A stretch of 63,933 nucleotides of DNA, the filler included, from Folioceros fuciformis (taxonomy: Eukaryota): NCBI GenBank assembly GCA_049999805.1. It is 7 parts of 7 records of this genome, joined end to end, with 100 filler letters (N's around TTAATTAATTAA, not from the genome) between each part and the next. Parts side by side here need not be neighbours in the genome. Positions count along the whole stretch, not along the records: positions 52,699 to 56,592 come from JBNGIO010004057.1; 6 more parts are not named here. One strand, given 5' to 3'. Every line of letters begins with the position of its first letter. Position 1 is the stretch's first letter. The notes below the pieces were generated by a model. That model was not told the DNA's origin. It did not search any database and worked only from the letters and a program-made list of their open reading frames with translations. The translations under genes were made by a program, and so were the position numbers. Below are positions 16,544 to 62,281 of the stretch, piece by piece.

Positions 16544-16643
16544 NNNNNNNNNNNNNNNNNNNNNNNNNNNNNNNNNNNNNNNNNNNNTTAATTAATTAAN
16601 NNNNNNNNNNNNNNNNNNNNNNNNNNNNNNNNNNNNNNNNNNN
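16544..16643. other. Assembly linker 44N-TTAATTAATTAA-44N
   Basis: Exactly 100 bp, with a six-frame stop 12-mer at 16588-16599. Confidence 0.95.
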
Positions 16644-28029: not shown

Positions 28030-28129
28030 NNNNNNNNNNNNNNNNNNNNNNNNNNNNNNNNNNNNNNNNNNNNTTAATTAATTAANNNNNNNNNNNNNNN
28101 NNNNNNNNNNNNNNNNNNNNNNNNNNNNN
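28030..28129. other. Assembly linker 44N-TTAATTAATTAA-44N
   Basis: Same 100-bp structure; 12-mer at 28074-28085. Confidence 0.95.
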
Positions 28130-31100
28130 TTCTCAGACCTGATCTCTATGTTGATCATAGAGGAGAAAAACCTAGGCGAGGAATCATCCTCTAAGCCTAA
28201 GGAAAACTCTGAGCAAGCCTTCTACTCTGGCAGAGGCAAAGGTAGAGCCCAAGGTGGCAAAGGGCAAAGAGGTGGTAGAGGTAGAAATTCCTACCAAAAT
28301 CAGCAACAGAATCAGGAGTCCCAGTACAAGAGTACACGTGGAAGAGGAAAAAAATCTCGAGGCTGGGGGAGTCAAAGAGGATGTGGAAATCAACAACAAA
28401 ATGATGCAAATGCGGACAATAGTGGTTGCTGGACTTGTGGTAGATTAGACCACTTCGAAAGAGACTGTCCACGGAGAAATCAAGGCAACAGGAGGCAGTA
28501 GAACAATTATGCCTCTAGAAGCCGTCAAAATGACTCGGACAACTTGTTTGTCATGCAGCATATGCTTAACTCTGTGTCTGCTAATGGATCCACCAATTGT
28601 GAGATTGTGTGGTATGTGGACTCGGGAGCTTCAAAGCACATGACATGCCATGGGGAGTGGTTCAAAGAAATGCAGGTGCTTGACAAACCTGGATATGTGG
28701 AAACTGGAGATGACACAACACATGCAATTGTGCATACAGGAACTGTACCTTTGAAGATGCAGGATGGCAAAGTGAAGTGCTTGGTAGATGTTCTTCACGT
28801 ACCCAACATCACAAAGAACTTGGTGTCAGTTGGGTAGATGGTTGAGCAAGGACTGCAGGTTAGGTTTACACCTGCAGGACTCTTTGTTGAAGAGTGCAAG
28901 AAAGGCGGTCACCTAATTGCTCAAGGGCAGAAGGTTGGACGGATGTTCACCTTGAACGTGAAGGTTCCTAAGCTGAAGTCAGCCATGTTTGCGAAGGGTA
29001 CAAGGGTAGTGATAGACCTAGAGATGTGGCACAAATGCATTGGACATGTAAATGTGCAGAAGTTGAAGTCCATGCAGCATCCGAAGGTTGTCACAGGCAT
29101 ACCCAAGCTTATAGAAACTGGGCTGCAAGGTGTATGTGAAGCATGTCAACTTGGAAAACAGCCTAGGAATGCGTTTCCCCATGATAAACATGTCAGCAGA
29201 TATGTGTTGGATGTTGTGCATTCACAAATGGGGTCCTACACAGACTGCATCAATCGGAGGATGCAAGTACTATGTGACCGTCATTGACGACCACACAAGG
29301 AAGGTGTGGGTCTATTTCATGAAAGAAAAAGTGAAGTGATCACTCATTTTCATACTTTCAAGGCGATGGTTGAGAAGCAGACAGGTAGGCACATCAAAGG
29401 CCTAAGATCTGATGGAGGGGGAGAGTACTTCTCTAGAGAGTTCAGCAAATTCTTATCAGAACAGGGCATTCAACTGCAGTACTCATGTTGTTATACGCCA
29501 CAACAAAATGGAGTTGTAGAGCGCAAGAACAGGCACATAGTAGAAGTGGCGAGAGCATTGATGACAGAGAAGAAGATGCCTCACTACTATTGGGCTGAAG
29601 TTGTAAACACAGCAGTGTACATCATGAACAGAATTCCTAAAGCAGCGATGCACAGTGTAACACCGAAGGAGAAGTTCACAGGGAAGAAAGCCGACTTATC
29701 ACACTTAAAGGTATTTGGTTGCATTGCTTATGTCCATATTCCGAATGAGTTGCGGACTAAGCCTGATTCAAACGTAGAAAAGTGTCTTCATTGGGTTTTC
29801 TGTTACACAAAAAGGATACAGGTGCTACAATCCCAGTACACAAGCTATGAGAATAAGTAGAGACGTAGTCTTTGATGAAATGGCTAGTTGGTACTTTGAA
29901 GTACAAGCAAGTGGTGTAGCTGATGTGCATGAAACTGAGGTAACAAGCAATGCAAGTCAATAATCACAAGTGTTGAGTGGACCGCAAGCGTCATCAAACT
30001 CGACAAATGTTCAGAATCAATGGAGTGGCAGGTTGCGAGGTAGTGTGAGCCCTACGAGCTCCACAGCTGTGTCTTGCAAAGGGAAGGAAAAAGTCCGGGA
30101 TTCAAAGATACCAGGCCTAAGTGCAGGTGCAGATGATTCAAGTGACTCTAAGCAGAGCTTGGATGAGGAATTCGGTGTACCGAAAATAGGAAACACCCGG
30201 TGCAAAAGAGGTTCAATCACCCCCTGGAAGTGGTTCAATCCCACGGATATTTGGAAGGCAAAAGGTTCCAATGCAGCGGTTGACCTATGATAGCTATGTA
30301 GCTAGGCATTGTGCCTATATGGCAAAGGTTGTGCAGGATGTGGAACCAAGAAGCTTTGAAGAAGCTATTGGAGACAAAGTGGGAACATGCCATGGATGAA
30401 GAAATGAATGCATTAGATCAGAATGCAACATGAGACCTAGTACAACTACCTGAAGGCAAGAACCCAATAGGTTGCAAATGGGTGTACAAGGTCAAACACA
30501 ACGCAGATGGTAGTGTCAGCAGGTACAAGGCAAGGCTTGTGGCCAAGGGATATGCCCAGACATATGGAATAGATTTTGAGGAGACGTTCAGTCTAGTTGC
30601 CAAAATGGCAACAATTCGAACCGTGATCGCACTAGTGGCATCGAAAGGTTGGGTCCTACATCATATGGATGTGAAGAATGCGTTCTTCCATGGAGAATTG
30701 CTGGAAGAAGTATACATGGACCAGCCATTAGGTTATGAGGATTTGGATCATCCAAATCATGTGTGCAAGCTGAAAAAAACGTTGTACGGATTGAAGCAAG
30801 CCCTGAGGGCTTGGCATGAGTATCTTGCTCAGCATCTAATTCACATCGGATTCAACATGGCAGATGCGGATCATTCGTTGTATGTGTGCATAAGTACAAA
30901 AGGACTGGTCTTTGTGATCATTTATGTGGACGATCTAATCATTGGAGGTAATCAGTTGGATCAAGTGGAGCAGATCAAGGAACTTCTGCAACAAGAGTTC
31001 AACATGACGGACCTAGGTGAACTGAAATTCTTCTTGGGCATTGAAATTATACGAACCAACAAAGGCATTTGGCTGCCACAGCGGAAGTATGCATTGGATG

Positions 31101-32172
31101 TACTAACTAAGTATGGTATGGTTGAGTGCAAGCCAATCTCGAATCCTTTGGATCAAAATCTGAAGCTCAGTGCTCATGATGGTGAAGCACTTGAAGATCC
31201 AACAGTGTACAGGAAGATTGTGGGTAGCTTGATATATCTCACTCTATCCAAACCAGATTTAAACTATACAGTGGGACTGTAGAGTCAGTTTCTGCAGGTG
31301 CCAAGAAAGCCACATTTGGATGCAGTAAGGCGAACGTTGCGCTATGTGAAGGCAACTATGAATCATGCTCTCTTTTATGCTGCAGATTAAGAATAAACTT
31401 GTGTGGGTGCACAGATGCAGATTGGGCAGGTAGTGTTACGGATCGTAGATCTACAAGTGGATTCATATTTTCACTTGGGAGTGCAGCAATAACATGGAGT
31501 AGCAAGAAGCAGCCTACAGTGGCTTTGTCTAGTACATAAGCTGAATACAGAGCCGCAGCAATGGCAGCGTGTGAAGTGACTTGGATTTGTAAGTTACTTG
31601 GAGATTTTGAATTGCAGGTCAACGACAAGGTTGTTATCTACTGTGACAATCTTAGCAGCATACAATTGGCGCAAAACCCATTGTTTCATGTCAGGACGAA
31701 ACACATTGAGGTACATATCATTTTCTTCGAGAAAGGATTTTATCTGGAGCTATTGATCTTGTGTATGTCAACACAGACGAGCATATAGCCGATATATTTA
31801 CTAAGCCAATAGGAGCAGAGAAGCTAATGAAATTCCGAGCTATGTTGGGCATACAGATGTTATGTTGAGCTCGAGGGGGAGTGTTGAGTTATCGAGCTCT
31901 ATATAAGCTAAACTCATGTGGTGTTAGTTATCCCGGTTGGGTTCATATTAAACTAGTTCTAGTTATTAATGAACTTAGGATAGTGTAGATTATCCCATAT
32001 TGAACTTGGAAGTTGTGTAGCCCTAAATGTACTACTTAAATGGAGACCTCGGACCTCCATAGTAAGACAGTGGTGATGTGTATTGTTTTTGGTTGTGACC
32101 ACCAATACCACCCTCTCTTCTCTCCTCTCCTCTCCTACACTTGCACATAGACTGGAGTCGATCATATTGACA
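28130..32172 (+). mobile_element. Ty1/copia LTR retrotransposon A (decayed; 5' end lost in the gap)
   Basis: Gag zinc knuckle CWTCGRLDHFERDC, protease WYVDSGAS, integrase (LRSDGGGEY, TPQQNGVVERKNR), RT (RYKARLVAKGY, IYVDD) and RNase H (IYCDN) in copia order, with stops and frameshifts. PPT GAGGGGGAG at 31873-31881. Confidence 0.95.
31882..32172 (+). repeat. 3' LTR of copia A (291 bp, TGTTGA...TTGACA)
   Basis: Begins immediately after the PPT. Its 3' end matches a second copy at 56693-56758, which also ends in TTGACA. Confidence 0.85.
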
Positions 32173-33760
32173 ATTTCTTATGGTGCACAGGATGCTACAT
32201 ATATAGCCTTTAGGTGGGGCAACCCTCAATAAGGTAAGCCTTAGTCTCGAGGGTGCAATATCCCGGTATATCCTGATATATCTTGAGAACACTTAGGTGG
32301 TAGATAACTACAAGTTCAATATGGGATAATCTACACTATCCTAAGTGTTGTTTGCTCTTAATAACAATTCAGTTAGAGCTTGATTTCTAACACTCCCCCT
32401 CAAGCTCCGACTATTTGTAACACTCCAAGTAGTTCATGAAAGTGTAAGAACTTATCTCTACCTAGTAACTTAGTAAAGATATCTGCTACCTGGTCTTTGG
32501 TCTTCACATGCCGTAGATCTATCTTCTCAGATAATACCACTTCCCTGATGAAATGATAATGTACTTCTATGTGCTTTGAACGAGCATGAAACACAGGATT
32601 AGTAGCTTAACTCATGCTACTCATGTTGTCACAGTAGATTGTGACCTTGTTGTTCACTATATTTCCAAGATCATGTAGCAACTTCTGCAACCAAGTTGCT
32701 TCACAGGCTGCCATTGCAGCTCCTCGATACTCTGCTTCTGTGCTTGACAAAGCAACTATCAATTGTTTCTTGCTTTGCTAGCTGATCATACTACTTCCCA
32801 GACTAAATGCATATCCATTGGTTGATCTTTTGTCATACGCACAACCAGCCCAATCAGCATCTGTATATCCTGTCAGATCAAGATGCTTCCTATGCTCATA
32901 GAGCAATCCAAACTCAGTAGTTCCTTTCACATATCTCATGATTCTTCTAACTGCATCCAAGTGCGGTTTCCTTGGGTTCTGCATGAATTGACTAATCAGT
33001 CCTACTGCATAACTTAAGTCAGAATGTGTGATAGTCAGGTAGATCAAACTTCCGACCATCTGTCGATACATGGTCACATTTTCTAGCTCAATTCCTACAT
33101 CCATTTGTAGCTTGACGTTCTGCTCCAATGGTGTATCCATCACTTTGCAATCTGCCATGCCATACTTCTACAGCATATCCTTAGTATATTGCTTTTGCAA
33201 TAGCCAGATTCCTTGAGGTGTAAACACAACCTCAATTCCTTTTAAGTATCTGAGTTCACCAAGATCCTTCACCTTGAACTCTTTTTGCATATTTGCCTTG
33301 ACATTTGCAATACCATCTGCATCATCTCCTGTGATGATCAGGTTGTCAACATAAACGACAAGACACACTGGTCCTACCTTGGTTTGTTTACAAACAGACT
33401 GTGATCTGCATCTCCAATCGCAAACCCTTGCTCCTTTAAATAGCTTGTGATACGAGCATTCCATGCTCTAGGTGTCTGTTTGAGTCCATACAATGCCTTC
33501 TTCAGTTTGCATACATATGTTGGAAACTTAGGATGAACATAGCCTTCAGAGGCTGTTCCACGTACACTTCCTCCTGCAACTCACCATTCAAGAAGGCATT
33601 CTTTACATCCATTTGCCATAACTTCCATCCTTTAGCTGCTGCTAATGCTATGACTGTCTTTACAGTTGTCATCTTGGCTACTAGACTAAAGGTTTCCTCA
33701 TAATCAAGACCATACTATTGTGCATATCCCTTTGCAACCAACATGGCCTTGTAACGCTCC

Positions 33761-36700
33761 AACTTCCCTTCAAGGATTCCTCCCCTACTCGTGCTTGTCG
33801 CCTTCTTGGAATAGTCCATTCTGACATTTGTGGACCTATGAGTACAGCATCCTTCGGCGGCCACTCATATTTCATCACATTCCTTGATGAGTGGAGCCGC
33901 TTCTGCCATGTCTATTTTTTACGCCACAAAGACGAAGCTCTCTCACGCTTCCAGGATTTTCTCCTCATAGCTGAACACCAAACTGGCTTCAAGTTGACCA
34001 CCCTACGAACAGACAACGGGGGTGAGTACACTAGCCACTCCTTTCAAGAGTTTTGTAGGTCAAAGGGCATCCTCAGACAGCTAATAGTACCCTATACTCC
34101 ATCTCAAAACCCCTTTGCAGAAAGACTGAACAGATCCCTTCTCGAAATCTCCCTCTCTCTCCTTAAGCTTTCAGGTCTTACCAAGGGCTATTGGGCCGAA
34201 GGTGTCTGTACTTCCAACTCCCTTAAGAATAGACTGCCTACCAAAGACCTTCCAGTTGTTACCCCCTTTGAACGATGGAGTGGAAATAAGCCTCGAGTCT
34301 CCCATCTCAGAATTTTTGGAAGTCCCGCCTTTGCCCACATCGCCGATGAAACTCAAAAAAAGTGGGACGATAAGGCCCGAAAACTTCTCTTTGTAGGTTA
34401 CTCAGACCAGGTCAAAGCCTACAAACTTTTCGATCCAACCACCAAAGAGGTCATCCTCTCCCGTAGTGTCCACTTCAATGAGTCTCACCTACTCCAAGCT
34501 TACCTCACTTCCTCCCTTACTTCCACACCTCTGCCTGCTCCTAGCTCTTCTAGTCGTCAACCTGCTGAATCCCTTGTTGCTCTTGAGGGGGCCACTACAT
34601 ATGATGCCGACCAAGACCCACAGGTTCCTCAGCAGGTCACTCCACCTCAACCAGGCTTAGCCACTATCCTGCCTCCTACTGCAGTGCCTTTACCTACACA
34701 ACACAACCCTGGTTCAGGTCAGGACATAGGAATCTCAAACCTCCCTGAGGCACTTGCTCCCGTTGTAAATCTACAACCCCAGATTCAGAACCTACCAGCT
34801 CCAACGCAGCATGTGCCTAGGAGATCAACTCGGCATCGCCCTCCTAGAAGTGAATGGAAGGAACCACCATATCTGCCTGGAGACACCCTCTCATCTCGGA
34901 GCACCTCAAGACGACACTACACCGAAAATCCATTTGTACACGAGCATACTCATCAGCTTTAACTTGGCATTATATCAAGCTTTATCTGCCATCAAAATGC
35001 AGAATGTACCTCAATCAATCAAGGAAGCCTTTAGCACCCCCCAGTGGACAGAGGCAGCCAAGTCATAGTTTGATTCACTAATAACAAACAAAACTTGGAA
35101 GCTCATTGACTTACCACTTGGCAAGAAACCCATCTCCTGTAAGTGGACTTTCCGGAGGAAGTTGAACCCCAATGGTACAATATCTAGGTACAAGGCAAGG
35201 CTTGTAGCCCGGGGCTTCAGTCAAGTCCTAGGCTTCGACTATGAGGAAAACTGACTTTACAGCCCAGTGGTAAAATCAACATCTATCAAAATTCTACTTG
35301 CGTTTGCTACTCAATATCGTCTTGACACTCACCAGGTTGACGTCAAGACAGCTTTCCTCTTCGGCACCTTGAATGAAGATATCTACATGCTCCAGCCACC
35401 TGGCTTTATCAAGGATCACAGAAAAGTTTGTAAGCTCATCAAGTCACTATATGGACTGAAACAATCAGCCCAGGTCTGGAATGAAACCGTAGATTTATTC
35501 TTAAAAAATGTGGTTTCTTACCTCTTACCACAAATTGCAGCATCTACCTCCTTAGACAGAAAGAGCATTTCGTAGTAGTCACCCTCTACGTCGATGACAA
35601 CTTCATATTTGGCAGTAGTCTTGAAATTATCAAGTATGTCAAAGACCTGTTAGCAAAAGAGTACGATGTTGTAGATTCATGACCCCTCAAATATGCCTTA
35701 GGTGTCCAGTTCGAACATAACTCAATCGACCACTCTTTCTTTATCCACCAACAACACTATGTGGATCAGCTTCTAGATAGGTTTAACCTGAAAGATGCTA
35801 GGCCCATATCTACACCAATAGCTGCAGGAGAAAAGGTGTTAGCGGAAGATTGCTCTACCACACCAGAGGAAGCAACAGAGATGGAATCCATTCCCTATAG
35901 TGAGGCTGTAGGCAGCCTCCTATACTTATCAATCTGGACCCGTCCGGACATAGCCCAGGCCATCAACATAACATCCAAATACATTTCAAACCCAGGCAAG
36001 GCTCATTGGACGAGCGTCAAGAGGATCCTGAGGTATTTGAAGGGAACCAGGTCTCTAGGGCTAGTTTACAAGCGCAATAGCTGCACGAACCTCATCCTCA
36101 CATGTTACTCAAACGCAGACTGGGCTGGAGACCCCGATGCTAGGAGGTCTACAGCAGCCTACTGCACCAAGATAAATGGGTCTACCATCTCTTGGACATG
36201 TAAGAAATTATAGACAGTCTACCTCTCCTCTACGGAGGTAGAGTATGCTGCTACTTCCTTAGCCGCTAAGGAGGTTCTGTGGATTCATCAGTTCCTGCAA
36301 GACATAGACGAGCAACAGCATCAGCCAACTAAATTAAAGTGCGATAACCAGTCAGCTATCGCTATGACCATGAATCCTGTGCTACACGCTAGGATTAAAC
36401 ACATGGAAATCCAACACCACTTCATCCGTCAGGTGGTGCACAACAAACAAACCAGCTTGAGCTATGTAAGCACATACAATAATATCGCCAATCTGTTAAC
36501 GAAGGGACTGACAAAGGCAATCCACGAAAGACATGTTGAAGGAATAGGGCTCGTGGCCAGAGAGGTATCTGGGTGTGGACAGCAAAGCCGTCCGCGTTGT
36601 AGATTAAGGGGGAGCTACTCAACCCCAGTATAAGCATCTGCAAGCCTTCAATCGTCCGGCAAGGGCTGCAACACTGCCAACTGATCAGGTGACTCGCAAC

Positions 36701-46156: not shown

Positions 46157-46256
46157 NNNNNNNNNNNNNNNNNNNNNNNNNNNNNNNNNNNNNNNNNNNN
46201 TTAATTAATTAANNNNNNNNNNNNNNNNNNNNNNNNNNNNNNNNNNNNNNNNNNNN
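46157..46256. other. Assembly linker 44N-TTAATTAATTAA-44N
   Basis: 12-mer at 46201-46212. Confidence 0.95.
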
Positions 46257-49200
46257 TAGTTGACACTTACCAGGTCAAAAATGTCTGCACCTTGATTCAT
46301 GTTTGAGAACAATTTCACAGTCTTAGGATGAAGGAAGGGGATCCTGTTGGAACCTATGTCACAAAGTTGAGGTACCTCCGGGCACAACTGTTTGCGGTGG
46401 GAGCCAAGACGATTGATGTGGAGATGGTTCCTCAACTGTTGACCGGCTTGCCTCCATCCTATCAGACTTTTATCTCAGGACAGAATGCTTCCTTGCGTGC
46501 TGCCTACCAAGCAGCAGCCAGTGGACAGCCTACTACCTTGGACTTGAATGAAGTCATTGGAGCGCTCCTACAAGAGGAGCACAGCAGACACAAGTTAGGT
46601 GGCACTCATCTTCGAGGTGAGAAGGTCCTGTTTGCATCGAAAGGCAAAGGACCTTGGAAGGGGAAAGGAAAGAAGGGCAACTCATCTCAAAATCAACATT
46701 CCTCGATGCCTGTTGCACCAAAAAGACAAGGTAACTGCAACTAGTGTCAAGTGCTAGGCCACTAGGAAAGTGAGTGTCGCAGAAAGAAAGCTAGCGAGGC
46801 CAAGAGGGAGATTAAGCCTGAGGCTCATGTCACATCCAATGTGAAGATTAATTCTTCGAATCAGCAGAAACCCAAGAGCAATAGTTCTGTATTAACAGTT
46901 TGCTTGACGTCTTACAAGGAAACTTCATCTTCCTGGTTTGTTGATTCAGGTGCCACTGCACATGTCTGTAACAACCGTCAGCTGTTCTCCACCTTTCACA
47001 ATCAGAGGTCCCCACAATTAGTTTTTGTTGGGGACTCTAAAGGTGTAGAAGTTAAGGGCTGTGGAGATGTAGCCATACCTTTGCTAGGAGGTGCGTTCTT
47101 GTACTTGGAAGATGTCTTGTACGTTCCTGAAATGAGCTAAAATCTGCTGAGTATTAAGGTTGTGGCACAAAGTCAGCAGTATGGCTTCCGTTTTGAGGAT
47201 AGGAAATGCTACATTTATGAGCTTAGCAACCCACAAGACTATGTAGCTAAAGCCATACTTGCAATGATTCATACCAACTAGTCACAGTTACCAAGTCTAG
47301 AGCTAGTGCTCTAGTTGTTGCATCATATGCACAAGCTAATCTTTGGCATGCAAGGTTGGGTCATGTCAATAAGTTTAAACTGAATGTCATGGCCAACTCA
47401 GATTTTTATAGGGAGAAATTACCTTCCTGCTTCAAACTTTTAGAGTCTTGTAGCTCTTGCATTTTGTCCAAGCAGAAGGAGCTACCATTTAAGAACAAGA
47501 CGCCTAATCGTGCCAAGCCCTTGCTCGAACTTATACACGCTGACATTGCTGAAAAATCCAGGTCAAGTCATGAGGAGGTGCTGAATACTACCTAACATTG
47601 ACAAACGATTTTTCAAGGTACACATGGACATTTCCCATTAAACATAAGAGTGAATTGTATGATCAGATTGCTTCTTGGATACCTATGGTGCAACGCCAGA
47701 CAGGCCATTTGGTGAAGTGTTTTAGGACTGATAATGGAGGAGAGTTCATAGGCCAGAAGTTTGATGATCTCTTCCAGCAGTTTGGAATTATTCACCAACT
47801 CTCCGTTGCCTACACACAGCAACAAAATGGGGTTGCTGAGAGGAAAAACCAAACACTTATGGGAATGACCAGATGCATGTTATCCTATGCAGGGCTGCAT
47901 AAAAGTTACTAGGCAGAAGCAATTGTGACAGCAACTTACTTATTGAACAGAGTTGTCACATCTACTCTACCTGGAAAGACACCTTATGAAGCCTTATGGG
48001 GAAGGAAGCCAAGCCTGTCCCATCTCAAGGTCTTTGGGTCACCAGCCTTTGCCTTCATACCTGAAGCAAACCGTAAGAAGTTAGATGACAGAGCTAAACA
48101 ATTGGTGTTTGTTGGATACTCAGAGGAGTCAAAGGCCTACAAACTGTTTGATCTAGCAACGTCTAAAACAACTCTGTCCAGAAGTGCAACTTTCAAAGAG
48201 CTTGTCCTCCCAGGCTGATGTGAACACTGGAGGTCCTGGCAGTTCGTCTCATTCCAAATCACTGCTGGACGAGCAGCCTCTCATAGTCCTAGTTAATTAT
48301 CCTCAGTCTGATGGAGAATCACCACAAGCTGATGATTATGCAGTTGTGGATGATATCTTGAATCCTCTTGCTCCAGTTGCTCAGCTTGATCAGTTTATTC
48401 CTCAGAACCCTAATGAACAGGTAGCTGATGATGATCATTCAATTAGTGTAGGTCACTCCGAGCATGATGACAGAGAAGATGAACCTCTTGTAGATGATGC
48501 TTACCTTGAATCAGATATGGATGCAGATGCTGCAAGTGTTGTAAGCCACAGTGATCCTGGCTCTCTTGGATCTCTTGGTTTGGATGACCCTTTGTTGAAT
48601 ACAGATCATACTGTTGAAGAGGGAGCACCTCCTGCTGCTGCAGTGGGGGATACCTCTCCTCGGTATCCTATTCGTGAACGCCGTCCAAGGGCAGAGTGGC
48701 AGGAGCCCCCGTACCTGGCTATTGATTTTCGTAGACCAACAGCTCATGTGACAGATTTACATTTGCCTGAAGTTAGGCTTGATCCTTAGAGTTACAAAGA
48801 CGCATTTGAAGGGCCTGATGCTAAACACTGGAGGATTTCAATTGATGAAGGGTATAACTCGTTGGTCAAGAATAATACTTGGGAACTTGCAGATTTGCCT
48901 CTTGGCTGGAAACCTATCACCTGCAAGTGGGTTTTCAAAACTAAGTTAAAGGCAGATGGCACAATTGCAAGGTATAAATCACGACTAGTAGCTCAGGGTT
49001 TCTCTCAGATANNNNNNNNNNNNNNNNNNNNNNNNNNNNNNNNNNNNNNNNNNNNNNNNNNNNNNNNNNNNNNNNNNNNNNNNNNNNNNNNNNNNNNNNN
49101 NNNNNNNNNNNGATCAGCTTGAAGGGTTTGTTGATAAACAATTTCCTAATAAAGTTTGCAAGTTATTAAAAACCATATATGGGCTCAAGCAGAGCCCTTG

Positions 49201-50964: not shown

Positions 50965-52380
50965 CTACCTCATGCCCATGAGTGTCCAAGCTTGTGCGAA
51001 TTGCTCCGAAGAGAGCCCCTTGGTAAGAACATCTGCAGGGTTCTGACTGGTGTGAACTTTGACAAGCTGTACCCTCTTGTCTTCCAACACCTCTCGAATG
51101 AAGTGATACTGCACTTCCACATGTTTGGTCTTCGAATGAAACACTGGATTGTTTGCCAATTGAATAGCACTCTGGCTGTCACAATGCAACACTGGCAGCT
51201 CAACCTTGATCCCTAAATCTCCCACTAAACGAGCAAGCCACATGGCTTCCTTGCAAGCCTTAGTCGCTGCAACATACTCGGCCTCCGTGGTAGATAGCGT
51301 TATGCATGATTGCAAACGAGATCGCCATGAGACTGCCCCTCCTGTGCACATGAAGACGTAACCTGATGTGGACCTCCTTTTGTCCATATCCCCTGCATAA
51401 TCAACATCCGTATATCCCACGAGAGATGCATCTTCACTCCCAAAACATAAGCACAAAGCTTTCGTACCATTCAAGTACCTTATAACTCTTTTCACTGCCT
51501 CCCAATGCTTCCTGCCAGGGTTTGACATAAACTTGCTAACCACTCTCACTGCAAAGGCAATGTCAGGACGTGTAGCAATCATTGCATACATCAAACTCCC
51601 TACAGCTGATGAGTATGGAACCTTCTCCATTTCAACTTTGTCCTCCGCAGAGTTTGAGCAATCCTTGCTCGACAGTTTCACATATGGAGGCAACGGAGTA
51701 CTTAATACCTTCCCCTTCTCCATATTGAAACGTTGAAGCACCTTGTTAATGTATTCAGTCTGAGACAAGTACAACAAACGCTTCTGTCTGTCTCGACGAA
51801 TACGCATGCCAAGAATATGGCTTGCCTCTCCCAAGTCTGTCATGTCAAAGCGACCATTCAACTTTGACTTCAACGCTGAAATCTCATCACGGTTAGTCCC
51901 AGCAAATAGCATATCATCCACATAGAGGACCAGAATGAGCAAGCTTCCATCCTTAGCTTGCTTCGTATAGAGGCAATGATCCTCTTTGCTACGCTTGTAG
52001 CCTTGGGAAAGCATAAATGAGTGGAACTTGAAATACCACTCCCTGGGTGCCTGCTTCAAACCATAAAGGCTCTTCTTTAACTTGCACACCAGATTCTCTT
52101 TGCCCTTCTCAATGAAACCCTCTGGTTGTGGCATGTATACCTCTTCCTGGAGATCATCATGCAAAAATGCCGACTTCACATCCATTTGGACAAGTTCCAT
52201 GTCGAGCCTCGCAACCAGACCAAGAACACATCGCAAGGTGGTCATTTTGACAACCGGTGAGAAAATCTCATCAAAGTCAATACCTTGCTGTTGCTTAAAC
52301 CCCTTCGCAACCAATCGTGCCTTGTACTTGGGTTTGCCATAATGGGGTATGTCCTTCATCTTATATACCCATTTGCATGG
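50965..52380 (-). mobile_element. Ty1/copia element E, RT-RNase H fragment (Tnt1/Tork-like), uninterrupted 464-aa frame
   Basis: PCKWVYK, YKARLVAKGF, QMDVKSAFL, LYVDDML, GYTDVDYAGD, LHCDSQSAI and NPADVLTK. No stops. No PPT or LTR is seen after the stop codon. Confidence 0.93.
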
Positions 52381-52598
52381 TGTGAACGAAAAAAACTTTC
52401 GGAACCCCCATTTTGAGCAACGGAATGAGCAGGTTGTGATTTTTTTTGTGAAGGGACAGGCGAATGGGCTTAGTAGGTAAATAGGACTAGGGAGTTTATG
52501 CCCAAAGTCCCTCTTGGGCTTCGGGGTTTGGGGTGTACTGGAGACCGGGATAAGGAGGGGGAATGAGCGAGTGCCTCCTTGGCCCTCGGGTCATTGAG
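52381..52598. mobile_element. Terminus (TGTGAAC...) of a probable LTR element inserted into copia E; cut by the gap
   Basis: The copia RT codons end exactly at a TG start. The same TGTGAAC terminus interrupts the integrase at 59218. Confidence 0.55.
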
Positions 52599-52698
52599 NN
52601 NNNNNNNNNNNNNNNNNNNNNNNNNNNNNNNNNNNNNNNNNNTTAATTAATTAANNNNNNNNNNNNNNNNNNNNNNNNNNNNNNNNNNNNNNNNNNNN
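52599..52698. other. Assembly linker 44N-TTAATTAATTAA-44N
   Basis: 12-mer at 52643-52654. Confidence 0.95.
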
Positions 52699-54497
52699 GG
52701 CGGCACATATCCTCTGGGAGGAGCCACCCAGAACTTTTGCTCCTGGCGCGCCTGATCCGGGGGAGCCTGCTGAGGAGGAGACTGCTCGGCAAGCGGCACA
52801 TATCCTCTGGGAGGAGCCACCCAGAACTTTTGCTCCTGACGCGCCTGCTCGGGAGGAGCCTGCTGAGGAGGAGACTGCTCGGCAGGCGGCACATATCCTC
52901 TGGGAGGAGCCACCCAGAACTTTTGCTCCTGACGCGCCTGCTCGGGAGGAGCCTGCTGNNNNNNNNNNNNNNNNNNNNNNNNNNNNNNNNNNNNNNNNNN
53001 NNNNNNNNNNNNNNNNNNNNNNNNNNNNNNNNNNNNNNNNNNNNNNNNNNNNNNNNNNACATATCCTCTGGGAGGAGCAACCCAGAACTTTTGCTCCTGA
53101 CGCGCTTGCTCAGGAGGCGCCTGCTGAGGAGGGGATTGCTCAGGAGGAGATAGCTGCGCAGGAGACTGCTCAGAAGGCGGCACATATCCTCTGGGGGGAG
53201 CAGCCCAGAACTTTTGCTCTTGACGCGCTGGCTCAGGAGGAACCTGCTGACGAGGAGACTGTTCAGCGGGAGGCGCATACCCTCTAGGAGGAGCATCCCA
53301 GAACTTCTGATTTGGCGACGCCTGATCAGAAGTAGGCTGTTGAGGAGGAGACTGCTGAGCAGGCGGCACATATCCCCTAGGAGGAGCAACCCAAAACTTT
53401 TGGTCTTGGGGAGTTTTCTGAGGAGGAGATTGTGGAGGAGAAGACTGCTCCGCAGGTGGCACATATCCTCTGGGAGGAGCAACCCAAAACTTCTGCTCCT
53501 GAAGCGCCTGCTGAGGAGGAGACTGTTCAGCAGGCGGCACGTACCCTCTGGGAGGAGCAACCCAAGATTTCTGCTCTTGACGCGCCTGCTGCGGAGGTTC
53601 CTCATCTTGAGGCGCCACATATCCCCTGGGAGGAGCAACCCAGAACTTTTGCTCAGAACGAGGCTGCTGAGGAGGAGACTGCTCTTGAGGCGGCACATAC
53701 CCTCTAGGAGGAGCAACCCAAAACTTCTGCTCTTGACGCTCCTGCTCAGGAGGAGACGGCTGAGGAGGAGACTGCTCTTGAGGCGGCACATATCCCCTAG
53801 GAGGGGCAACCCACAACTTTTGCTCGGAACGAGACTGCTGAGGAGGAGTCTGCTCTCGAGGCGGCACATACCCTCTAGGAGGAGCAACCCAAAACTTTTG
53901 CTCTTGAGGCTCCGGCTGAGGAGGAGGCTGCTGAGAAGGAGACTGCTCTTGTGGCGGCACATATCCCCTAGGAGAAGCAACCCAGGACTTCTGATTCGTA
54001 TGCGGCTCCTCAAGAGGAGGAGGAGGCTGCTCAGGGGGCGGAACATAGCCTCTGGGAGGAGCAACCCAATACTTGTTCTCGGTAGCAGGCTGCTCAGGAG
54101 GTGGCGCGTATCCCCTTGGGGGAGCAACCCAGTTTTTCTGGGCGGAAATTTGGGTCGACACCTCCGGCTCCTGAGGGGCTCCATCCGCGGCACCTCCCTC
54201 CCGTTCGAACTCTACTTCCGGTACTTCGAAACCGTCCACGACGCCGTCTCCCCCCTGCCCTGACACCGCCGCGTAAGGGAACGCATTGGCGCTGGACGCG
54301 ACATCCACCGGCCTGACCCAGCAAGCTCCTCGCCATCCCGGAACCTTGGCACCATTCCTAAGAAACAGTCTTTGCGGGGGAGGAGCAGATTTCGACCCCG
54401 AGCCCGGCCCCGGCACCAATCCCGATCCGGACTCCGCCCCCGCCCGATGTAAAGCGGAGGTGAATCCCTGCGCGAGAAGGGAGACGGTGACACTCAT
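52699..54497 (-). CDS. Uncharacterised tandem-repeat protein: transit-peptide-like N-terminus plus at least 16 x QKFWVAPPRGYVPP; 3' end missing in the gap
   Basis: ATG at 54497 and no stop up to the gap at 53058; the repeats continue at 52958-52699. Synonymous codon variation within the invariant PRGY core. GC-rich upstream region with telo-boxes. Confidence 0.85.
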
Positions 54498-54839
54498 CCC
54501 TCCCCGCTGCCGCTGCTGCAGGCGCAGCTGCAGACAATGCCCGTCCCGACGTCAACAATCTGGTCCCCATCACAAATACGCACAATAAGATGAGCTCAAA
54601 GTGCAGCGGCGAAGACAAAGCTAAAAGAGCGAAACCCCAGCACCACGACCCAACTCAACACACACATATCCAAGCTCGAGTCTGGTGAAGGCTGATAACA
54701 GCACTGACTCACTCACGTTCCCTTCCCTGCCCAGCCCTGCCGAGCCGGCGTCAACAACAAGCAACCGCCTGGAGAATCCCCGACACAAGCTCCAACCGAC
54801 ACCGGCCAGCAGACACCGCTACCTCCATGATCCTCACGC

Positions 54840-55072
54840 AAACCCTAACCCACGAGCCACGAGGAATCCCCAGCACGCCGTGACACTCTGCGAGCAGTCC
54901 GACAAAGCAGCGGACCCGGCTAAGCGAGGTGGCAGATTCGAGCACGACCAATGAATCAGACAGGGCGCGCCGCGCCGGGCGCCCTAGCCTGGCCTGGCCC
55001 AGCCATCCCATCTCCCCGCCCTCTCTAACACTCCTCCGTCTGCCCTCACCGCTCTAAAGCCCTAAACCCTAA
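54840..55072. promoter_or_regulatory. Two telo-box motifs (AAACCCTAA) in the GC-rich promoter island upstream of the repeat-protein gene
   Basis: Exact AAACCCTAA at 54840-54848 and 55064-55072, within CpG-rich, non-decayed sequence. Confidence 0.4.
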
Positions 55073-56592
55073 CGCCCAGCCGCCCCGCCCGCCAGTTTCG
55101 CCCGGCGCAACGGCTGCGGTTGGAGGTGGAGCCTCTATCCATTCCCTCGCGCTTTCTACCTTGCGCGCTTTCTGCTTCCTGGGGGATAGATGTCTATCTA
55201 CTGTATCTATCTATCTATATATCTACACTAGTTCCGCTACCCAGCGTCATCTCGGCTGTGTGTGGGGCCGAGGAGGAGCGGTACACCCACAAGCAGAGGC
55301 ACAGGCACAGACCCAGGCCAATCAGTCACCACCTTTTTCACCTTCGTATCTTCCTCCACATTCCATTATTCGTGTACCATCTGCTTTGCTCGCACAATGC
55401 ACGGCGATAATATTCACGCTGACGCCCTCTTCTCGTCACACGCAAGCATTCTACCAGGGCAACAGCCTCGCCCAACACGAGGACACCACCACCATCCTCG
55501 ACACCCTTCTCCCTCCCATAAATCCTTGGACCAGCAAGAGCAAAAGCAAAAGGAAAAGCATCCATCCCCGGACGACCAAGACCAAAAGGAAAAGCAACCC
55601 AAGACAGCGCTCACTGCTCCTTTCCCGGATCACGCTCCTTCTCCTTCTCCTGCTCCTGCTGCCATCCCCAAGAAGGCAATTGATGGATTGTCACATAGCC
55701 AACATTCAAAAAGGAGGAAGACTAACAAGCACAAGACCAAATTTGTGCATCACAACACACGCACCAGCAGGCTTACCCTTCACATGAATTGGTTTCTTCA
55801 TGGCTTGAATTGTAATGAAAAAAAGTGGGCAAACTTGTGTTGGCACATCCTTCTAAAACAAAAATCCATCCATTCAACTAATCTTATTCTCTAATGTTCA
55901 AAACTTTTATGCATTTTTCCAACTCTTTTTCTTTCTATTTTGACTAGACATACACACAAGAGTATATTTTGTATTAAACAACATCCTGTAGTTATTTTAT
56001 GATATATTTATTATATTCAATAATATAAGTAATTTATTATTATTATTATAAAATAATAAATATTTTGAGTGCGTAGAGAGATACTTAGATTTAAAGAGTA
56101 AAGATCTCTTTTATTTAGTTTCTTGTTTAGGAGGGCAAAAAATTTCATTCTTGAACCCCTTGGTAAAACAAGATACTTGAGCTTGAGTGTTGTCCAAGCT
56201 TGATATTTGAGTTCCAACATCAGACCACCTCAAAGTTGCTTCTATCAATAGCATGTGTTGTTGAAAATTTAGCATTTTCCAAATCCAATCTCCAGCAAAG
56301 TAGAGCTACCAAAGGGGTTGTGATCCTTGTTTAGGATTAGGACTAGAACAAGGATTTGTTTTTTTCTTACCAAAAAAAAAGTTGAAAAAGGATGGATCGT
56401 GAATGAAAAGGTTGCCAAAGATGGTGAGAGACAGGCGGCGAAAGAAGAAGGATTTTGCTTACGAGAAGCGACGACCTCTCGTATTAAACAGCGCAACCTC
56501 TTAAAAAGGTAAAACAGGTGTAACTGGGGGAGGAGTGTGGAGGGAGAAGGCAAGGAGTTGGGTGGTAGCTGCATACTCATACTCTGTAAGGG

Positions 56593-56692
56593 NNNNNNNN
56601 NNNNNNNNNNNNNNNNNNNNNNNNNNNNNNNNNNNNTTAATTAATTAANNNNNNNNNNNNNNNNNNNNNNNNNNNNNNNNNNNNNNNNNNNN
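56593..56692. other. Assembly linker 44N-TTAATTAATTAA-44N
   Basis: 12-mer at 56637-56648. Confidence 0.95.
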
Positions 56693-56845: not shown

Positions 56846-59217
56846 TGTTAGAAACCTATGGGGTTTGTGCAACATATCTACATTAGAGTCTAGAGATTAT
56901 ACCTCAAGGTATATAGAATAGCACCACGATTGAGGTAACGTTTACCCTTTATCGAGTTATAATCATGCTTGAAGGCAATATATGTACCCATGGACTATCA
57001 ATCTAGATGTACTGAGCTAAGGCTTATCTTGGGATTCACCATTTTTCTAACATGGTATAAGAGCCCATGTTCTAAACCCCAAGTCCCTTAGCTCAGCAGA
57101 TGCGTAGAGTACTTGGTATTGACTTGTGTAGGACTATCTCGTCTTCCTTTGCATTGTGTATTGGGCTACGCAGACTATGTGTATGTAAGAGCTTGTGCAA
57201 GTTAGAGGAGCTTTGTGATAGTTATCGGTGTAAGGACGTGATCCTGTTTAGCCGCGAAGGACGGGAGCATGGAGACACGTTTTCTCAAAAATTTGTGCAG
57301 TGAAGAAGTTTGGAGGCAAGAACTTCACATTGTGGAAGTTGAAGACGAAGATGCTTCTCATTGAGAAAGGAGTATGGAAATTTGTCGATAAGGGCCTCGA
57401 TGATATACCCACATAAATAGACCTTGACAAGGATGGACAAACTTTGGCAACAATCTTGTTGAATGTCTCAAACAACATTCTCTCTCAGTTGAGTGAATGT
57501 GCAACGTTGAAAGAAGCTTGGGTCACCCTCTACAACACATATGAAAAGAGAAGTATGGTGAGTGCGATGCTATTGGAGCAACAACTTGCGAACTTCAAGA
57601 TAGCCGAAGGCGACACCATTCAATGACATGTCAACAAGTTGAACACCTTGGTGGAGCAAATGAAGGCGATGGACATCAAATTGACCGACGAAAGGATCCT
57701 CGTACAGTTGTTGAGTAGCTTACCATCAACTTACAAGCCCTTCGTGTTGACTTTCAAGACATCGGTGGCAATGTGTCCAAGTGACAACCCACCGTCGTTG
57801 GATGAGGTGGTTGGGTTGCTTTTGCAGGAGGAGTTGGAGATTTCACCCAAGCAAGCAAAGACTGATGACGCAGTTCTCTTCTCCAAGAAAGGCAAAGCAA
57901 AAGCGAAGTCCAAGCCTAAGGACGAGTACAAGTCCAAGTCAACAAACGAGACGAAGAAGGACGATACTAGTTGTACAATGAAAGGATCCTCCTATTATTG
58001 CAGGAATCCAGGTCATCATACAAAAGAATGCTGAACGAATCAAAAAAGGATAAATCACCTCAAGCCAATCAAGTGAGTGAGCCGACTCAACAAGAACAAA
58101 CTTTTGTGTGCTCCAGGGACAGGAATCGAGCTACTTCATTGCAGAAGGACGAGAGTCTTTATCTTGACTTTGGTGCATCTCAACATTTCAGCTACCACCT
58201 TCCCTGGTTCACCGGCTACACACGACTCCCAAAGGGCCATACGGTGGCACTTGGTGAGAGTATGTCACATGATATCGAGGGGAAAGGAGTCTTACAAGTT
58301 CAGTTGCAGGGCGGAACCTGTGCACGTATTGCGGATGTGCATCATGTACCCAATCTCGCGAGGAATCTTCTTTCTGTCATGCGGACTGTAGATGCAGGTC
58401 GTGAAGTCGTGTTCAACTCTGTAGGCTGTTGCATCAAACCTGTGTACAGCTTGAGCTGTCACAAGTGGCTGCTCGGGGTGTTCGTGTGGGCAATCTGTAC
58501 AAACTTTGTGCTTTCCTGGGACAGCAAGCTTGTACGTTCCTGATTAGTTCACACGACAACATTGGGTCCGTCGATTTATGGCATCAGCGTTTGGGCCACA
58601 TCGAAGCAAACAAACTCAAGTTGATGACAACTCGCGACATGGTGACCGGCTTGGATTTAAAGGAGATCACTACGACACGGTTATGTCTAGGATGTCAAAT
58701 GGGGAGGCTACATCGCACGAAGTTCCCTAAAACCATGGCACATCGCGTGCAGAAGGTGTTGGAATTAGTCCACACTGACGTGAGTGGGCCCATGAGGAAC
58801 CCTACCCAGGGAGGGAACCGCTACATGCTCATCTTTGTCGACGATTTTACACGGAAGACATGGGATTTCTCTGTTTGAAGGAGAAATCTCAACTGTTCCA
58901 GGCTTTCAAGGATTGGAAGACTTCGATCGAGACCGAACGTGGTGAACGCTTTAAGATGATTAGGAGTGATGATGGAGGGGAATATGTTTCTTCTGAGTTC
59001 CAAGTTTTTTGTAAGGAGAACGGCATTCAACGACAACTCACAATTCCGCACACTCCGCAGCAAAATGCAGTTGTAGAGCAGAAGATACGGGGCCTTGTGT
59101 AAGCAGCCAAGTCCATGTTGTTTCACATTGGCTTGTATGTCAATTTTTTGGGAGAGGCTATCGTGATAGCAACCTACGTGTTGAACAGAGTTCTAATAGA
59201 GGCCGTACTTGGTATGA
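56846..59217 (+). mobile_element. Ty1/copia element F, 5' half (LTR 56846-57052, PBS, gag-protease-integrase)
   Basis: TGTTAGA...TCTAACA LTR and PBS TGGTATAAGAGCC at 57053. Coding motifs NFTLWKLK, LLSSLPSTY, YLDFGASQH, WHQRLGH, VHTDVSGPM and IRSDDGGEY. Confidence 0.92.
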
Positions 59218-59567: not shown

Positions 59568-59667
59568 NNNNNNNNNNNNNNNNNNNNNNNNNNNNNNNNN
59601 NNNNNNNNNNNTTAATTAATTAANNNNNNNNNNNNNNNNNNNNNNNNNNNNNNNNNNNNNNNNNNNN
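59568..59667. other. Assembly linker 44N-TTAATTAATTAA-44N
   Basis: 12-mer at 59612-59623. Confidence 0.95.
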
Positions 59668-62281
59668 CTGCGCGTGTTTGGGTCGACGGTGTATGCTCAA
59701 GTACACCAAGACCTGCACAGGAAGTTCGAACCAAAATCAGATCGCTGCATTTTTCTAGGATTTACTGATGGCATCAAAGGCTACAAGATTATCAATTAAC
59801 ATACCAAGCGGGTGATGCATTCCAAGGATGTTGCGTTTGTAGAGGACGTTGAAGCCAGTCAGCCAGTGGGAGCTGCCTTGTCCGATGACTCAGAGGATGA
59901 CTCCACAGTAGAGGTGGAGGAGATGATGGTGGGACAAATCCCGGTACCTCTTCCGGGACCCATTCCTGTGCCTGCACAAACTCAAACTCAGGTGGCACCA
60001 GCTACAGCATAGTCCCCTGTAATGCACACACCCCTACGACCATATGGCCGTGTGCACAGTAACCGCAGCTTGTTTGAGTCACCATCTGTCCTTGATTCTG
60101 ATGCATCAGAAACAGTTATTCCTACTGCTACACCTGAAGGGCAGCACAGGAGGAAAGCCAAGTTTGCTCACCTCGAGCCTCGGCGATCACTTCGAGCTCA
60201 GAAGCCTCCTGATATGTATGTGTCAAATGATTTCAGGCACCCTAAGACTAATTTTTCTCATTGCCTAGCTGTGAACACCTTGCTCTATGAACCCCCAACC
60301 TATGAGGCAGCTCTAAGTTGTCCAGATGCTGAGCACTGGCATGTGGCCATACAGTCGGAGCTGGCATCCTTGCATGAGAATAATACATGGGTTATTGTAA
60401 GCTTGCCTGCAGACAGGAAGCTAGTGGGGTCCAAGTGGGTGTTTAAGATCAAACTGAAGGCAGATGGGAGCATAGCACGCTACAAAGGCAGAGCAGTAGG
60501 AAAAGGGTATTCTCAAATACTTGAAATCGACTATGATGACACGTTTAGCCCGGTGGTGAAGCTAAACACATTGCGGATGTTCGTAGCACTAGCAGCTGTC
60601 AACAATTTAGAACTGGACCAGCTTGACGTCACCACGGCCTTCCTGTACTGCAATCTGCAGGAGGAGATCTATATGCAGGTTCCCCCAGGAGTGGCAATAC
60701 CCTCTAATATATCTCGTCCAGCTTGTAAATTGTTGAAAACCCTGTATGGGCTCAAATAGAGCCTGTGAGCATGGTACGAGAGGATTGATGCATACCTACA
60801 GCAACTAGGCTATGCAAGCTTGCACGCAGACAGTAATGTGTATATTAAAAGAGAGGGTACTAATTTTCTAGCTCTTGCTATATACGTTGACATCATAGTG
60901 CTAAGCAATTCTAGAAGGATGATTCATGAGCTGAAGGAACATATGAAAAGAGAGTTCAAGACAATTGAAGCTGGAGCTCTTGCCTACTGTCTGGGCATGC
61001 AGCTCCTCGGGAACAGAAGCGCAGGCACCATCTTCCTGCATCAGCACAAATATGCATTACAAATCCCTGCATCAGCACAAATATGCATTACAAATCCTGG
61101 AGAGGTACGGCATGTCTAGTTGCAAACCTATTGCAACACCTGTAGAGCAAAATGTGAGATATGTTCAGCAAGTCGGTGACATACTTGAGGAGGACGTGCC
61201 ATACGTGGAGCTCTACCCTTCCAAGAATGGCAGTGTAATGCACCCGATGATGAGCAGCAGGCCCGACTTGGCGTTCAGTTCTGGACTGACTTCTAGATTC
61301 GTTTCCAACCCCAACAAATCGCATCAGGACCTCATGACAAGGGTCTAGTGCTACATAGCTGGAACAGCGGACTGGGGTATTATGTATAGCACCAAGGAGA
61401 AGGATGCCCTACGCCTGATGGTCTACAGTGATGCTGACTGGGCAGGAGACCCAGACAGCCATAAAAGCATCAGCAGTTATGTCATGTTGCTAGCAGGAGG
61501 AGCCAGATCCTAGAGCAGCCGGAAGTAGTCAACCATCACTCTTTCTTCGACAAAAGCGGAGTACAAAAGCTTGACAAAGGCTTGCAAGGAGATTACATGG
61601 TCAGTGGGGGCACTCAGAGAGCTCGGAATTTAGCAGCAACTTCCAATTGACCTGTTTAGTGACAACTAGAGCGCCATAGTGCTCTCCATCAATCCTCGCT
61701 TCCATGCCAGGACGAAGCACATCGAGATAGAGCACCATTACATTCGGCAAACCATAGCTCAAGGGCTGGTGAGGATTTCATACTGCCCTACCGAATCCAT
61801 GACTGAGACATCTTGACAAAAACGCTTGGGCACATCAAACACTATGAGCACTCAAGCGCTATGGGGCTGCGGTCAGCACAAGGACCTCTGAGGTGGAGCT
61901 TAGTGCCCGATCGGCATTCCAGTTGGGAGGTCGGCAGGAGCTCGAAGACTCAAGCAGAGCGTGAAGACTGACGAGACTCCGACACCTGCTCAGGGCTGAC
62001 GAGTTTCTTTGCAGGATTGTCGAGTTTCCTTTTTAGTTAGGTTTTACGTTTCATAGAAGTTAGAAGTAAACAATATAAACATATATATATATAACTATAA
62101 AATACAGACTCTACACGTCCTAACTCTAGACCTGAGTGGGAGTGTTAGTATAGGTATGTCTAACCCTAGTATAGGTTAGCTATCCAAGTCATAGGTTAGT
62201 CTTTCAAAGAGCCTTGTCACAATGCTTGTACCAGTGTTTTGCACTTTGCCTTAGACCATACAAACACTTGATTAATTGACA
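59668..62281 (+). mobile_element. Ty1/copia 3' half (integrase tail, RT, RNase H, PPT, 139-bp LTR)
   Basis: LRVFGS, VGSKWVFKIK, QLDVTTAFL, YSDADWAGD and FHARTKHI. PPT GAGTGGGAG at 62134-62142; LTR TGTTAG...TTGACA at 62143-62281. Confidence 0.9.

Follow-up and report, generated by a model that had tools for sequence, protein, structure and literature searches.

What is encoded by a long open reading frame (ORF) on the minus strand, at positions 52699–54497 of the 63,933-nucleotide stretch of DNA analysed here (the window), in which one short peptide built around Trp, Pro, Arg and Tyr recurs again and again? The frame begins with an ATG at 54497 and is still open at 52699, the edge of an assembly gap; its coordinates and its description in an earlier reading of the sequence (the original prediction) hold. 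This frame belongs to a nuclear gene that is real and transcribed, the host being a seed-free land plant, and encodes an orphan sticker-and-spacer protein, that is, a chain of short conserved peptides (stickers) separated by variable sequence (spacers).

Anatomy and expression of the sticker array

We count 16 visible copies of the sequence W-x-A-[PS]-P-R-G-Y, two of them abutting runs of N. The array begins at residue 119 and its units consist of QKFWVAPPRGYVPP followed by Gln/Glu/Pro spacers; the core of the unit can be written K-x-W-V-A-P-P-R-G-Y-V-P-P, after which comes sequence composed of Pro, Gln, Glu and Ser. The Trp, the Ala at the third place, the second Pro, the Arg, the Gly and the Tyr are identical in 16 of 16 copies, while the Val is present in 14 (one Asp and one Ala replace it) and the first Pro in 15 (one Ser). 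The codons used within the cores vary: Arg is encoded by AGA 11 times and by AGG 5 times, Gly by GGA (11), GGG (4) and GGC (1), Tyr by TAT (14) and TAC (2), and the second Pro by CCC (9), CCT (6) and CCA (1). Units are 21–41 residues long, mostly 26 or 31, and Tandem Repeats Finder reports DNA periods of 78 and 93 nt, with the older copies 70–89% alike and the last 2.8 copies 96% alike. At the 3′ end, growth of the array continues. In three public sequencing runs the contig depth over the three young 3′ units is 4–10 times that of the unique part; a few additional units hidden from view would agree with this figure, which does not equal copy number and was not used to estimate them.

Pro accounts for 116 of the 448 residues of the repeat region, in SPP, APP and VPP units accompanied by one Tyr per unit; four Pro fall within the 11 residues of a sticker and no run of Pro in the units exceeds four. 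In every unit a sticker that is basic and aromatic is followed by an acidic spacer rich in Gln and Glu.

Synonymous (pS) and nonsynonymous (pN) differences between array copies, counted according to Nei and Gojobori, reveal that the peptide core has been held constant while codons and spacers drifted. For the core WVAPPRGY in all 16 copies pS is 0.408 and pN 0.021 (pN/pS 0.052), and the 13 older copies taken by themselves give 0.405 and 0.025 (pN/pS 0.061). Widening the comparison to 13 codons, from two before the Trp to the final Pro-Pro, yields a pS of 0.432 and a pN of 0.059 in 14 copies (pN/pS 0.137), and the first eight spacer codons of 14 copies a pS of 0.348 and a pN of 0.239 (pN/pS 0.686). 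When the core DNA of the 16 copies is read one base out of frame, pS falls to 0.039 and pN is 0.142 (pN/pS 3.6); two bases out of frame the values are 0.083 and 0.132 (pN/pS 1.6). Minor bases in 14 clean copies number 62 at third codon positions, 15 at first and 15 at second positions. The stickers are under purifying selection and the spacers are relaxed. Docking motifs joined by tethers would be expected to show just this combination, with stickers kept and spacers left to drift.

The original prediction had described at least 16 copies of an aromatic/Arg/Pro motif between Pro/Gln/Glu/Ser spacers, and had taken an invariant PRGY core with changing codons as a sign of selection on the peptide and not of a DNA satellite. 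The count of 16 bears this out, as do the second Pro, Arg, Gly and Tyr, unchanged in every copy while their codons vary in the way it had claimed. A core pN/pS of 0.05 against 0.69 in the spacer and values above 1 in the other two frames, together with third-position variation of 62 against 15 and 15, places the selection on the peptide and not on the repeated DNA.

The stretch is present in three public sequencing runs (X1, X2 and X3), whose contigs were compared over 52699–55400. One contig of run X1 joins 54559 directly to 54717 and skips 157 nt, the ends of which read CT..AC on the plus strand and hence GT..AG on the minus strand, with the borders GGGAAC/GTGAGT ... GACCAG/ATTGTT. The same joint occurs in neither of the DNA-labelled runs X2 and X3. 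A canonical intron in the 5′ untranslated region (UTR) is therefore spliced from a minus-strand transcript, whose level and ends are not given by these data. A transcript, on whose absence the original prediction was to be abandoned, is thus seen in the spliced contig of run X1. Further contig pieces of X1 lie on the coding region and on 54717–55017; X1 contigs do not reach beyond 55064 while those of X2 and X3 continue, an observation from one study that was not used to place the transcript start. The gene can be laid out as follows.

54717–55017, minus strand: 5′ UTR exon 1, covered exactly by a 301-nt contig piece of run X1; the true 5′ end may differ
54560–54716, minus strand: 5′ UTR intron of 157 nt, GTGAGT...CAG, from the X1 contig joint and a check of the border sequence
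54498–54559, minus strand: 5′ UTR share of exon 2, with an in-frame stop 5′ of the ATG (translation in the ORF frame)
54273–54497, minus strand: leader, residues 1–75, of transit-peptide-like composition (from composition, isoelectric point and hydropathy)
54144–54272, minus strand: acidic Gly/Glu/Val-rich segment, residues 76–118 (10 Asp or Glu among 43 residues, isoelectric point 4.05)
53059–54143, minus strand: older part of the array, 13 stickers with Pro/Gln/Glu spacers (DNA copies 70–89% alike)
52959–53058, no strand: assembly gap of 100 N within the array, hiding a further number of units (sequence)
52699–52958, minus strand: young 3′ copies, three stickers in 2.8 units of 93 nt, 96% alike (repeat analysis)
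52599–52698, no strand: scaffold linker, 44 N + TTAATTAATTAA + 44 N, where the C-terminus of the gene is lost (sequence)

The interruption of the array by the inner gap at 52959–53058 and the make-up of the gap at 52599–52698 as a scaffold linker are points absent from the original prediction, and neither gap is bridged by any contig of the three public runs. The visible protein contains a single Met, M1 at 54497, and since no other start is visible the leader is always made. Three upstream ATGs in the 5′ UTR exon at 54717–55017 open frames of 86, 16 and 25 codons, none of which extends the main ORF; these could damp translation of the main ORF. Upstream of the gene, at a distance of ~0.8–1.3 kb, the GC content dips to 23–28% (55850–56300), beside a GC-rich (54–65%) promoter and 5′ UTR region.

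Relatives were sought at several levels. A word-indexed protein search among proteins of similar length scored 8000 candidates, none of which reached an E value of 0.001, and a profile built from 12 two-sticker rows, run against proteins of 82–2000 residues, gave 6809 candidates with a best E value of 0.97. In the PDB this two-sticker profile had no match up to an E value of 10, and the protein atlas gave no usable match for the whole protein or for residues 1–122. Three matches returned by phmmer from 1,835,955,588 representative proteins (E values of 1e-5 to 7e-5), to a Ser/Arg-rich, a YVPP/QQ-rich and a GY-repeat protein, were set aside as low-complexity similarity without the motif. A pattern scan of metagenome contigs gave 41 stretches, one of which (L001) passed tblastn, with a lone AAPPRGYVPP in an ORF of 60 residues; among contigs of prokaryote genomes one of 24 stretches passed (L002), with a lone WVAPPRGYVPG and no repeats. 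Both were taken as chance occurrences. The latter stretch (L002:3001-3090) is the end of a contig of Nonomuraea lactucae, a GC-rich actinomycete, and lies in an open frame. Strings of the motif core are absent from the full-text literature searched, in which only "wvapp" strings matched, in listed titles that are unrelated. For land plants with annotated genomes this blank carries some weight, because the protein library includes many plant proteomes, as seen in a search with a cytochrome P450 from the same window. The protein is thus an orphan by sequence, and the novelty of the motif claimed earlier agrees with the protein, profile, PDB, metagenome, genome and full-text searches; the published hornwort linker candidates (the EPYC1 analogue, PPP1 and PPP2) lie outside this comparison, and identity with one of them is possible.

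Leader, disorder and possible functions

Residues 1–75 comprise 10 Ser, 10 Ala, 10 Gly, 8 Pro, 7 Val, 6 Leu and 5 Arg but only two acidic residues, with an isoelectric point (pI) of 10.9. This nearly acid-free leader switches abruptly to the acidic segment of residues 76–118, in which 10 of 43 residues are Asp or Glu and the pI is 4.05; composition and pI thus agree with the earlier description of some 75 residues rich in Ser, Ala, Gly and Arg and poor in acidic residues, followed by a short acidic segment. The opening 16 residues carry no charge and are of moderate hydrophobicity, and by inspection the longest unbroken hydrophobic run in the N-terminal sequence is three residues. On the Kyte–Doolittle scale the highest means in the leader are 1.95 over 8, 1.36 over 12 and 0.78 over 19 residues, and no membrane-grade hydrophobic stretch is found in the visible protein (top 19-residue mean 0.78). 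Chloroplast transit peptides generally open with uncharged residues up to a Gly, continue with a hydroxylated and acid-free middle part and finish in a part containing Arg. The leader appears to fit this plan, and ...FPYA/AV... near residue 75 is a possible cleavage site.

The protein is predicted to be intrinsically disordered. A single-sequence AlphaFold2 model of 479 residues has a mean predicted local distance difference test score (pLDDT) of 43.1, with no residue at 70 or above, 392 below 50, and no secondary structure. The sole Pfam match, PF24507 (Ig_CFAP65_4th, E value 5.6e-09), was rejected as repeat or compositional noise, as none of the stretches passes when taken alone. No Pfam family is found in the first 119 residues, and the ORF bears no resemblance to RbcS in Pfam. 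The absence of any folded domain from the visible part, as proposed originally, is in keeping with the lack of a passing Pfam domain and with the unstructured model. Prediction of a complex of four copies of a two-sticker fragment returned a score of 0.00, which says nothing either way on self-association.

Our preferred explanation, which we hold tentatively and at somewhat less than even confidence, is that the protein is a multivalent sticker-and-spacer scaffold imported into an organelle, probably the plastid. The plastid scaffold put forward in the original prediction is plausible as a function. The transit-peptide-like leader of ~75 residues would bring it into the organelle, most likely the plastid, where each copy of K-x-W-V-A-P-P-R-G-Y-V-P-P would be a short linear site for docking. 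That Ala, Pro and Gly, beside Trp, Arg and Tyr, are so strictly conserved suggests stereospecific docking on a folded surface, and not generic aromatic/Arg stickiness. The bound sticker would probably be extended and polyproline-II-like in shape, which is likelier than a helix because four of 11 residues are Pro. The fast-evolving Pro/Gln/Glu spacers, about 12–27 residues long, would act as flexible tethers only. One molecule could in this way gather numerous copies of a partner that is folded and probably oligomeric, and so work as a linker, a tether or a condensate scaffold; Rubisco is among several candidates for this partner and is not preferred.

A number of points weigh against this scaffold. 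The missing C-terminus of the protein could turn out to be an enzyme, to anchor it in a membrane or to contain a BURP domain, any of which would alter this explanation, and the Ser/Gly/Ala/Pro-rich N-terminus could be merely more low-complexity sequence. The visible protein is not basic, with a pI of 6.35, or 5.35 once the leader is removed, the repeats alone reaching 8.81. AlphaFold2 predicts no helical sticker anywhere, and as evidence for disorder a model built from a single sequence is in itself weak. Transcription is documented by one run (X1) of one study, and the RNA nature of that run is a guess.

The disorder, the anatomy of the repeat and the pattern of selection would fit equally well a multivalent disordered protein of the nucleus and cytoplasm, with an N-terminus that is no targeting signal and with stickers that are ligands of proline-recognition domains or aromatic/Arg drivers of condensation in the cytosol or nucleus. 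The alternation within each unit of a basic, aromatic part (the sticker) and an acidic part rich in Gln and Glu (the spacer) speaks for it as well, such a pattern being typical of phase-separating polyampholytes. However, a leader that is nearly acid-free and gives way abruptly to an acidic segment is not what this explanation would lead one to expect, and the motif fits no ligand consensus of WW, SH3, GYF or EVH1 domains known to us. We regard a nucleo-cytoplasmic protein as unlikely, while giving it serious weight.

The high Pro content (116 of 448 residues), the SPP, APP and VPP units with one Tyr each and an uncharged, moderately hydrophobic start of 16 residues recall secreted proline- or hydroxyproline-rich proteins of the cell wall, which would bear hydroxyl groups, sugars or cross-links on their Tyr and Pro-Pro units. 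Hydropathy nevertheless identifies no canonical hydrophobic core of a signal peptide (top 8-residue mean 1.95, longest run three residues), and a long Ser/Gly/Arg-rich stretch occupies the place where the mature protein would be expected to start. The array, moreover, is rich in Gln and Glu and not in Lys, and has no units of the SPPPP or PPVYK type that mark the classical families. A wall protein is for these reasons decidedly unlikely.

A precursor with many cores, cut into modified peptides that would be cross-linked through Trp and Tyr as in burpitides or serve in signalling, the motif being core plus recognition sequence, seems quite improbable. Precursors of plant RiPPs (peptides made by ribosomes and modified after translation) with several conserved Tyr/Trp-rich core repeats do exist, as described in PMC11253845, and the missing C-terminus might carry a BURP domain. 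Against this, neither a BURP nor any other domain is seen in the visible protein or in the scanned ORFs of the window, hydropathy gives no clear signal peptide, the spacers vary in both length and sequence (pN/pS 0.69), and at least 16 cores of 11–14 conserved residues exceed the examples presented in PMC11253845. Finally, a young, expressed, lineage-specific ORF whose array grew by slippage without any specific function, which the lack of detected relatives and the recent expansion indicated by the 96% alike 3′ copies might suggest, is hardly credible given that 40% of synonymous sites differ between the older copies and their core has nonetheless been kept (pN/pS 0.06 in 13 copies), as drift in the absence of function would not do.

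The host and the remainder of the window

A second protein of the window informs on the host. An intronless frame of 450 codons at 22633–23982 on the minus strand encodes a CYP94-like cytochrome P450 (Pfam p450, E value 4.5e-50). Among the best 120 relatives listed, identity does not exceed 47%, and these come from conifers, Ginkgo, the lycophyte Diphasiastrum, Sphagnum and other mosses, a liverwort and angiosperms. In a quick maximum-likelihood tree of the window protein with 40 rows picked by lineage from the 120 (80 rows left out), it forms a long branch within a poorly resolved group that also contains mosses, the liverwort and Diphasiastrum, outside the seed-plant clade (Shimodaira–Hasegawa-like approximate likelihood ratio test, SH-aLRT, 87). 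The join with its sole sister is flagged as a possible long-branch artefact, and paralogy among P450s limits what such a tree can say about lineage. The host thus appears to be a land plant outside the seed plants, without a closely related annotated proteome, and the placement of the P450 supports the seed-free plant named originally. A hornwort may be the host, being compatible with this placement.

The window is apparently made of short contigs strung together, and the neighbourhood of genes across the linkers may be arbitrary. Seven identical linkers of 100 bases (44 N + TTAATTAATTAA + 44 N) occur in it, besides gaps of 100 N and of 10 N. Linker positions include 16544–16643, 28030–28129, 46157–46256, 52599–52698, 56593–56692 and 59568–59667. 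A copia reverse transcriptase lies just past the linker at which the sticker gene breaks off (50968–52590, minus strand; RVT_2, E value 3.7e-65), and since the TTAATTAATTAA-bearing linker may join pieces arbitrarily this element need not be a true neighbour. Much of the window is taken up by fragments of Ty1/copia type (RVT_2, rve, SH3_retrovirus, Pol_BBD), at the following positions.

30434–31279, plus strand: Ty1/copia-type fragment
33685–34959, plus strand: Ty1/copia-type fragment
47574–47909, plus strand: Ty1/copia-type fragment
50968–52590, minus strand: Ty1/copia-type fragment
57971–58540, plus strand: Ty1/copia-type fragment
60013–60756, plus strand: Ty1/copia-type fragment

An open frame at 12833–14122 on the minus strand, with a plant LRRNT_2 cap followed by leucine-rich repeats, is probably the exon for the ectodomain of a receptor-like kinase or receptor-like protein. 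Another, at 5868–6527 on the minus strand, has a weak match to an EF-hand pair (E value 8.2e-06) that falls under the Pfam cut-off. No Rfam family is found in the window and no highly conserved gene among its scanned ORFs. A BURP domain is likewise found in neither the visible protein nor the 25 other scanned ORFs, in a window where the C-terminus of the sticker protein is missing and neighbours may be arbitrarily joined.

Comparison with known linkers and repeat proteins

In algae, carbon fixation is organized by sticker-and-spacer proteins, and efforts are under way to transfer these to crops for the construction of synthetic pyrenoids. To our knowledge, every such protein so far is specific to its lineage and invisible to homology searches. 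Against this background the signature described here is unusually clean: at least 16 stickers with a pN/pS of 0.05 and drifting spacers, in a land plant and behind an import-like leader.

Like EPYC1 of Chlamydomonas, CsLinker of Chlorella and SUPA1 of Ulva, the protein is predicted to be disordered and carries evenly spaced, conserved stickers within low-complexity spacers. Those three linkers are described as having four to six positively charged helical stickers ~40–60 residues apart (PMC13655443; 10.64898/2026.07.16.738900) and as lineage-restricted, without homologues beyond their order according to PMC11570498, PMC13655443 and 10.64898/2026.07.16.738900. In contrast, the present array has at least 16 Pro-rich stickers without a predicted helix, 21–41 residues apart, in a protein with a visible pI of 6.35, and there is no sequence similarity to any of the three. 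The FLIPPer screen as set out in PMC11570498 asks for at least three repeats 20–120 residues apart, and screens for Rubisco linkers are reported to require a pI above 8 (10.1101/2024.06.26.600872; 10.64898/2026.07.16.738900). By such measures the protein is largely disordered (AlphaFold2, single sequence) and has 16 stickers spaced by 21–41 residues, but it lacks helical stickers and the visible pI is 6.35, that of the repeats alone being 8.81 and the C-terminus missing. We do not class it among the Rubisco linkers, because it departs from these screens in helix and pI and shares no sequence with the known linkers. The analogy with EPYC1 and PYCO1 drawn in the original prediction stands for disorder and for the spacing of 21–41 residues, and does not extend to a pI of 6.35 or to Pro-rich stickers without predicted helices.

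PYCO1 of the diatom Phaeodactylum shows some likeness in its stickers. These are given in PMC10288592 as KWSPRGGS and GTGYNP, six and five in number, whose Trp and Tyr drive self-association and binding to a red-type Rubisco, and the authors liken the protein to the positively charged mussel foot proteins. Both proteins build their stickers on Lys, Trp, Pro, Arg and Gly, in PYCO1 with a sticker bearing Tyr nearby, and K-x-W-V-A-P-P-R-G-Y resembles a fusion of the two PYCO1 stickers; the likeness spans four to five residues and may be due to chance, no homology being detected.

Among land plants, RbcS-STAR of Anthoceros agrestis is presented in PMC13655443 as the only Rubisco-condensing element described so far. 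It is a Rubisco small subunit with a helical coiled-coil tail that is held responsible for condensation (PMC13655443; 10.1101/2024.06.26.600872), and in the same two accounts co-immunoprecipitation and genome scans of Anthoceros agrestis are reported to have given no separate linker; an earlier "EPYC1 analogue" from this species is inconclusive as described in 10.1101/2024.06.24.596764. Unlike RbcS-STAR, the protein considered here is a separate repeat protein without resemblance to RbcS. To see in it a stand-alone, polyproline-type multivalent linker, the first from the plastid of a land plant, would be a bold step that we consider very doubtful. Each of its 16 to 20 or more W/R/Y stickers would then dock to an oligomer of the stroma, be it Rubisco, FNR or some other abundant enzyme, and the protein would collect this oligomer in a condensate or at a membrane, with an origin independent of EPYC1, CsLinker, SUPA1, PYCO1 and RbcS-STAR.

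Plant RiPP precursors offer a parallel of another kind. Multi-core examples in PMC11253845 are VLFYPSY, present four times in a Selaginella BURP protein, and FLWGY, three times in coffee; the same source describes Tyr-O-Pro cross-links in plant RiPPs and a recognition sequence that forms a repeating unit demarcating the cores. Like burpitide precursors, the present protein strings conserved short units bearing Tyr and Trp in tandem along a long chain. It differs from them in the lack of a visible BURP domain or clear signal peptide, in its longer cores and in its variable spacers.

Within the plastids of vascular plants, Pro-rich repeats of the polyproline-II type with aromatic and basic residues are found in Tic62 and TROL, where they tether FNR. 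Tic62 and TROL carry few such repeats, placed behind a dehydrogenase domain or combined with a rhodanese domain and a membrane anchor. Here, in contrast, no folded domain or membrane span is visible, and the motif appears to differ from the Tic62/TROL consensus.

If the protein is located in the plastid, it would point to a new multivalent assembly in embryophyte organelles and provide a sticker chemistry that is new and not helical. Should its place be elsewhere, it would still constitute a well-defined orphan array of short linear motifs, the receptor of which could be retrieved with a peptide of 14 residues. Taken beside the systems discussed above, it appears, judged from its sequence, to follow the general design of multivalent linkers with a different sticker chemistry.

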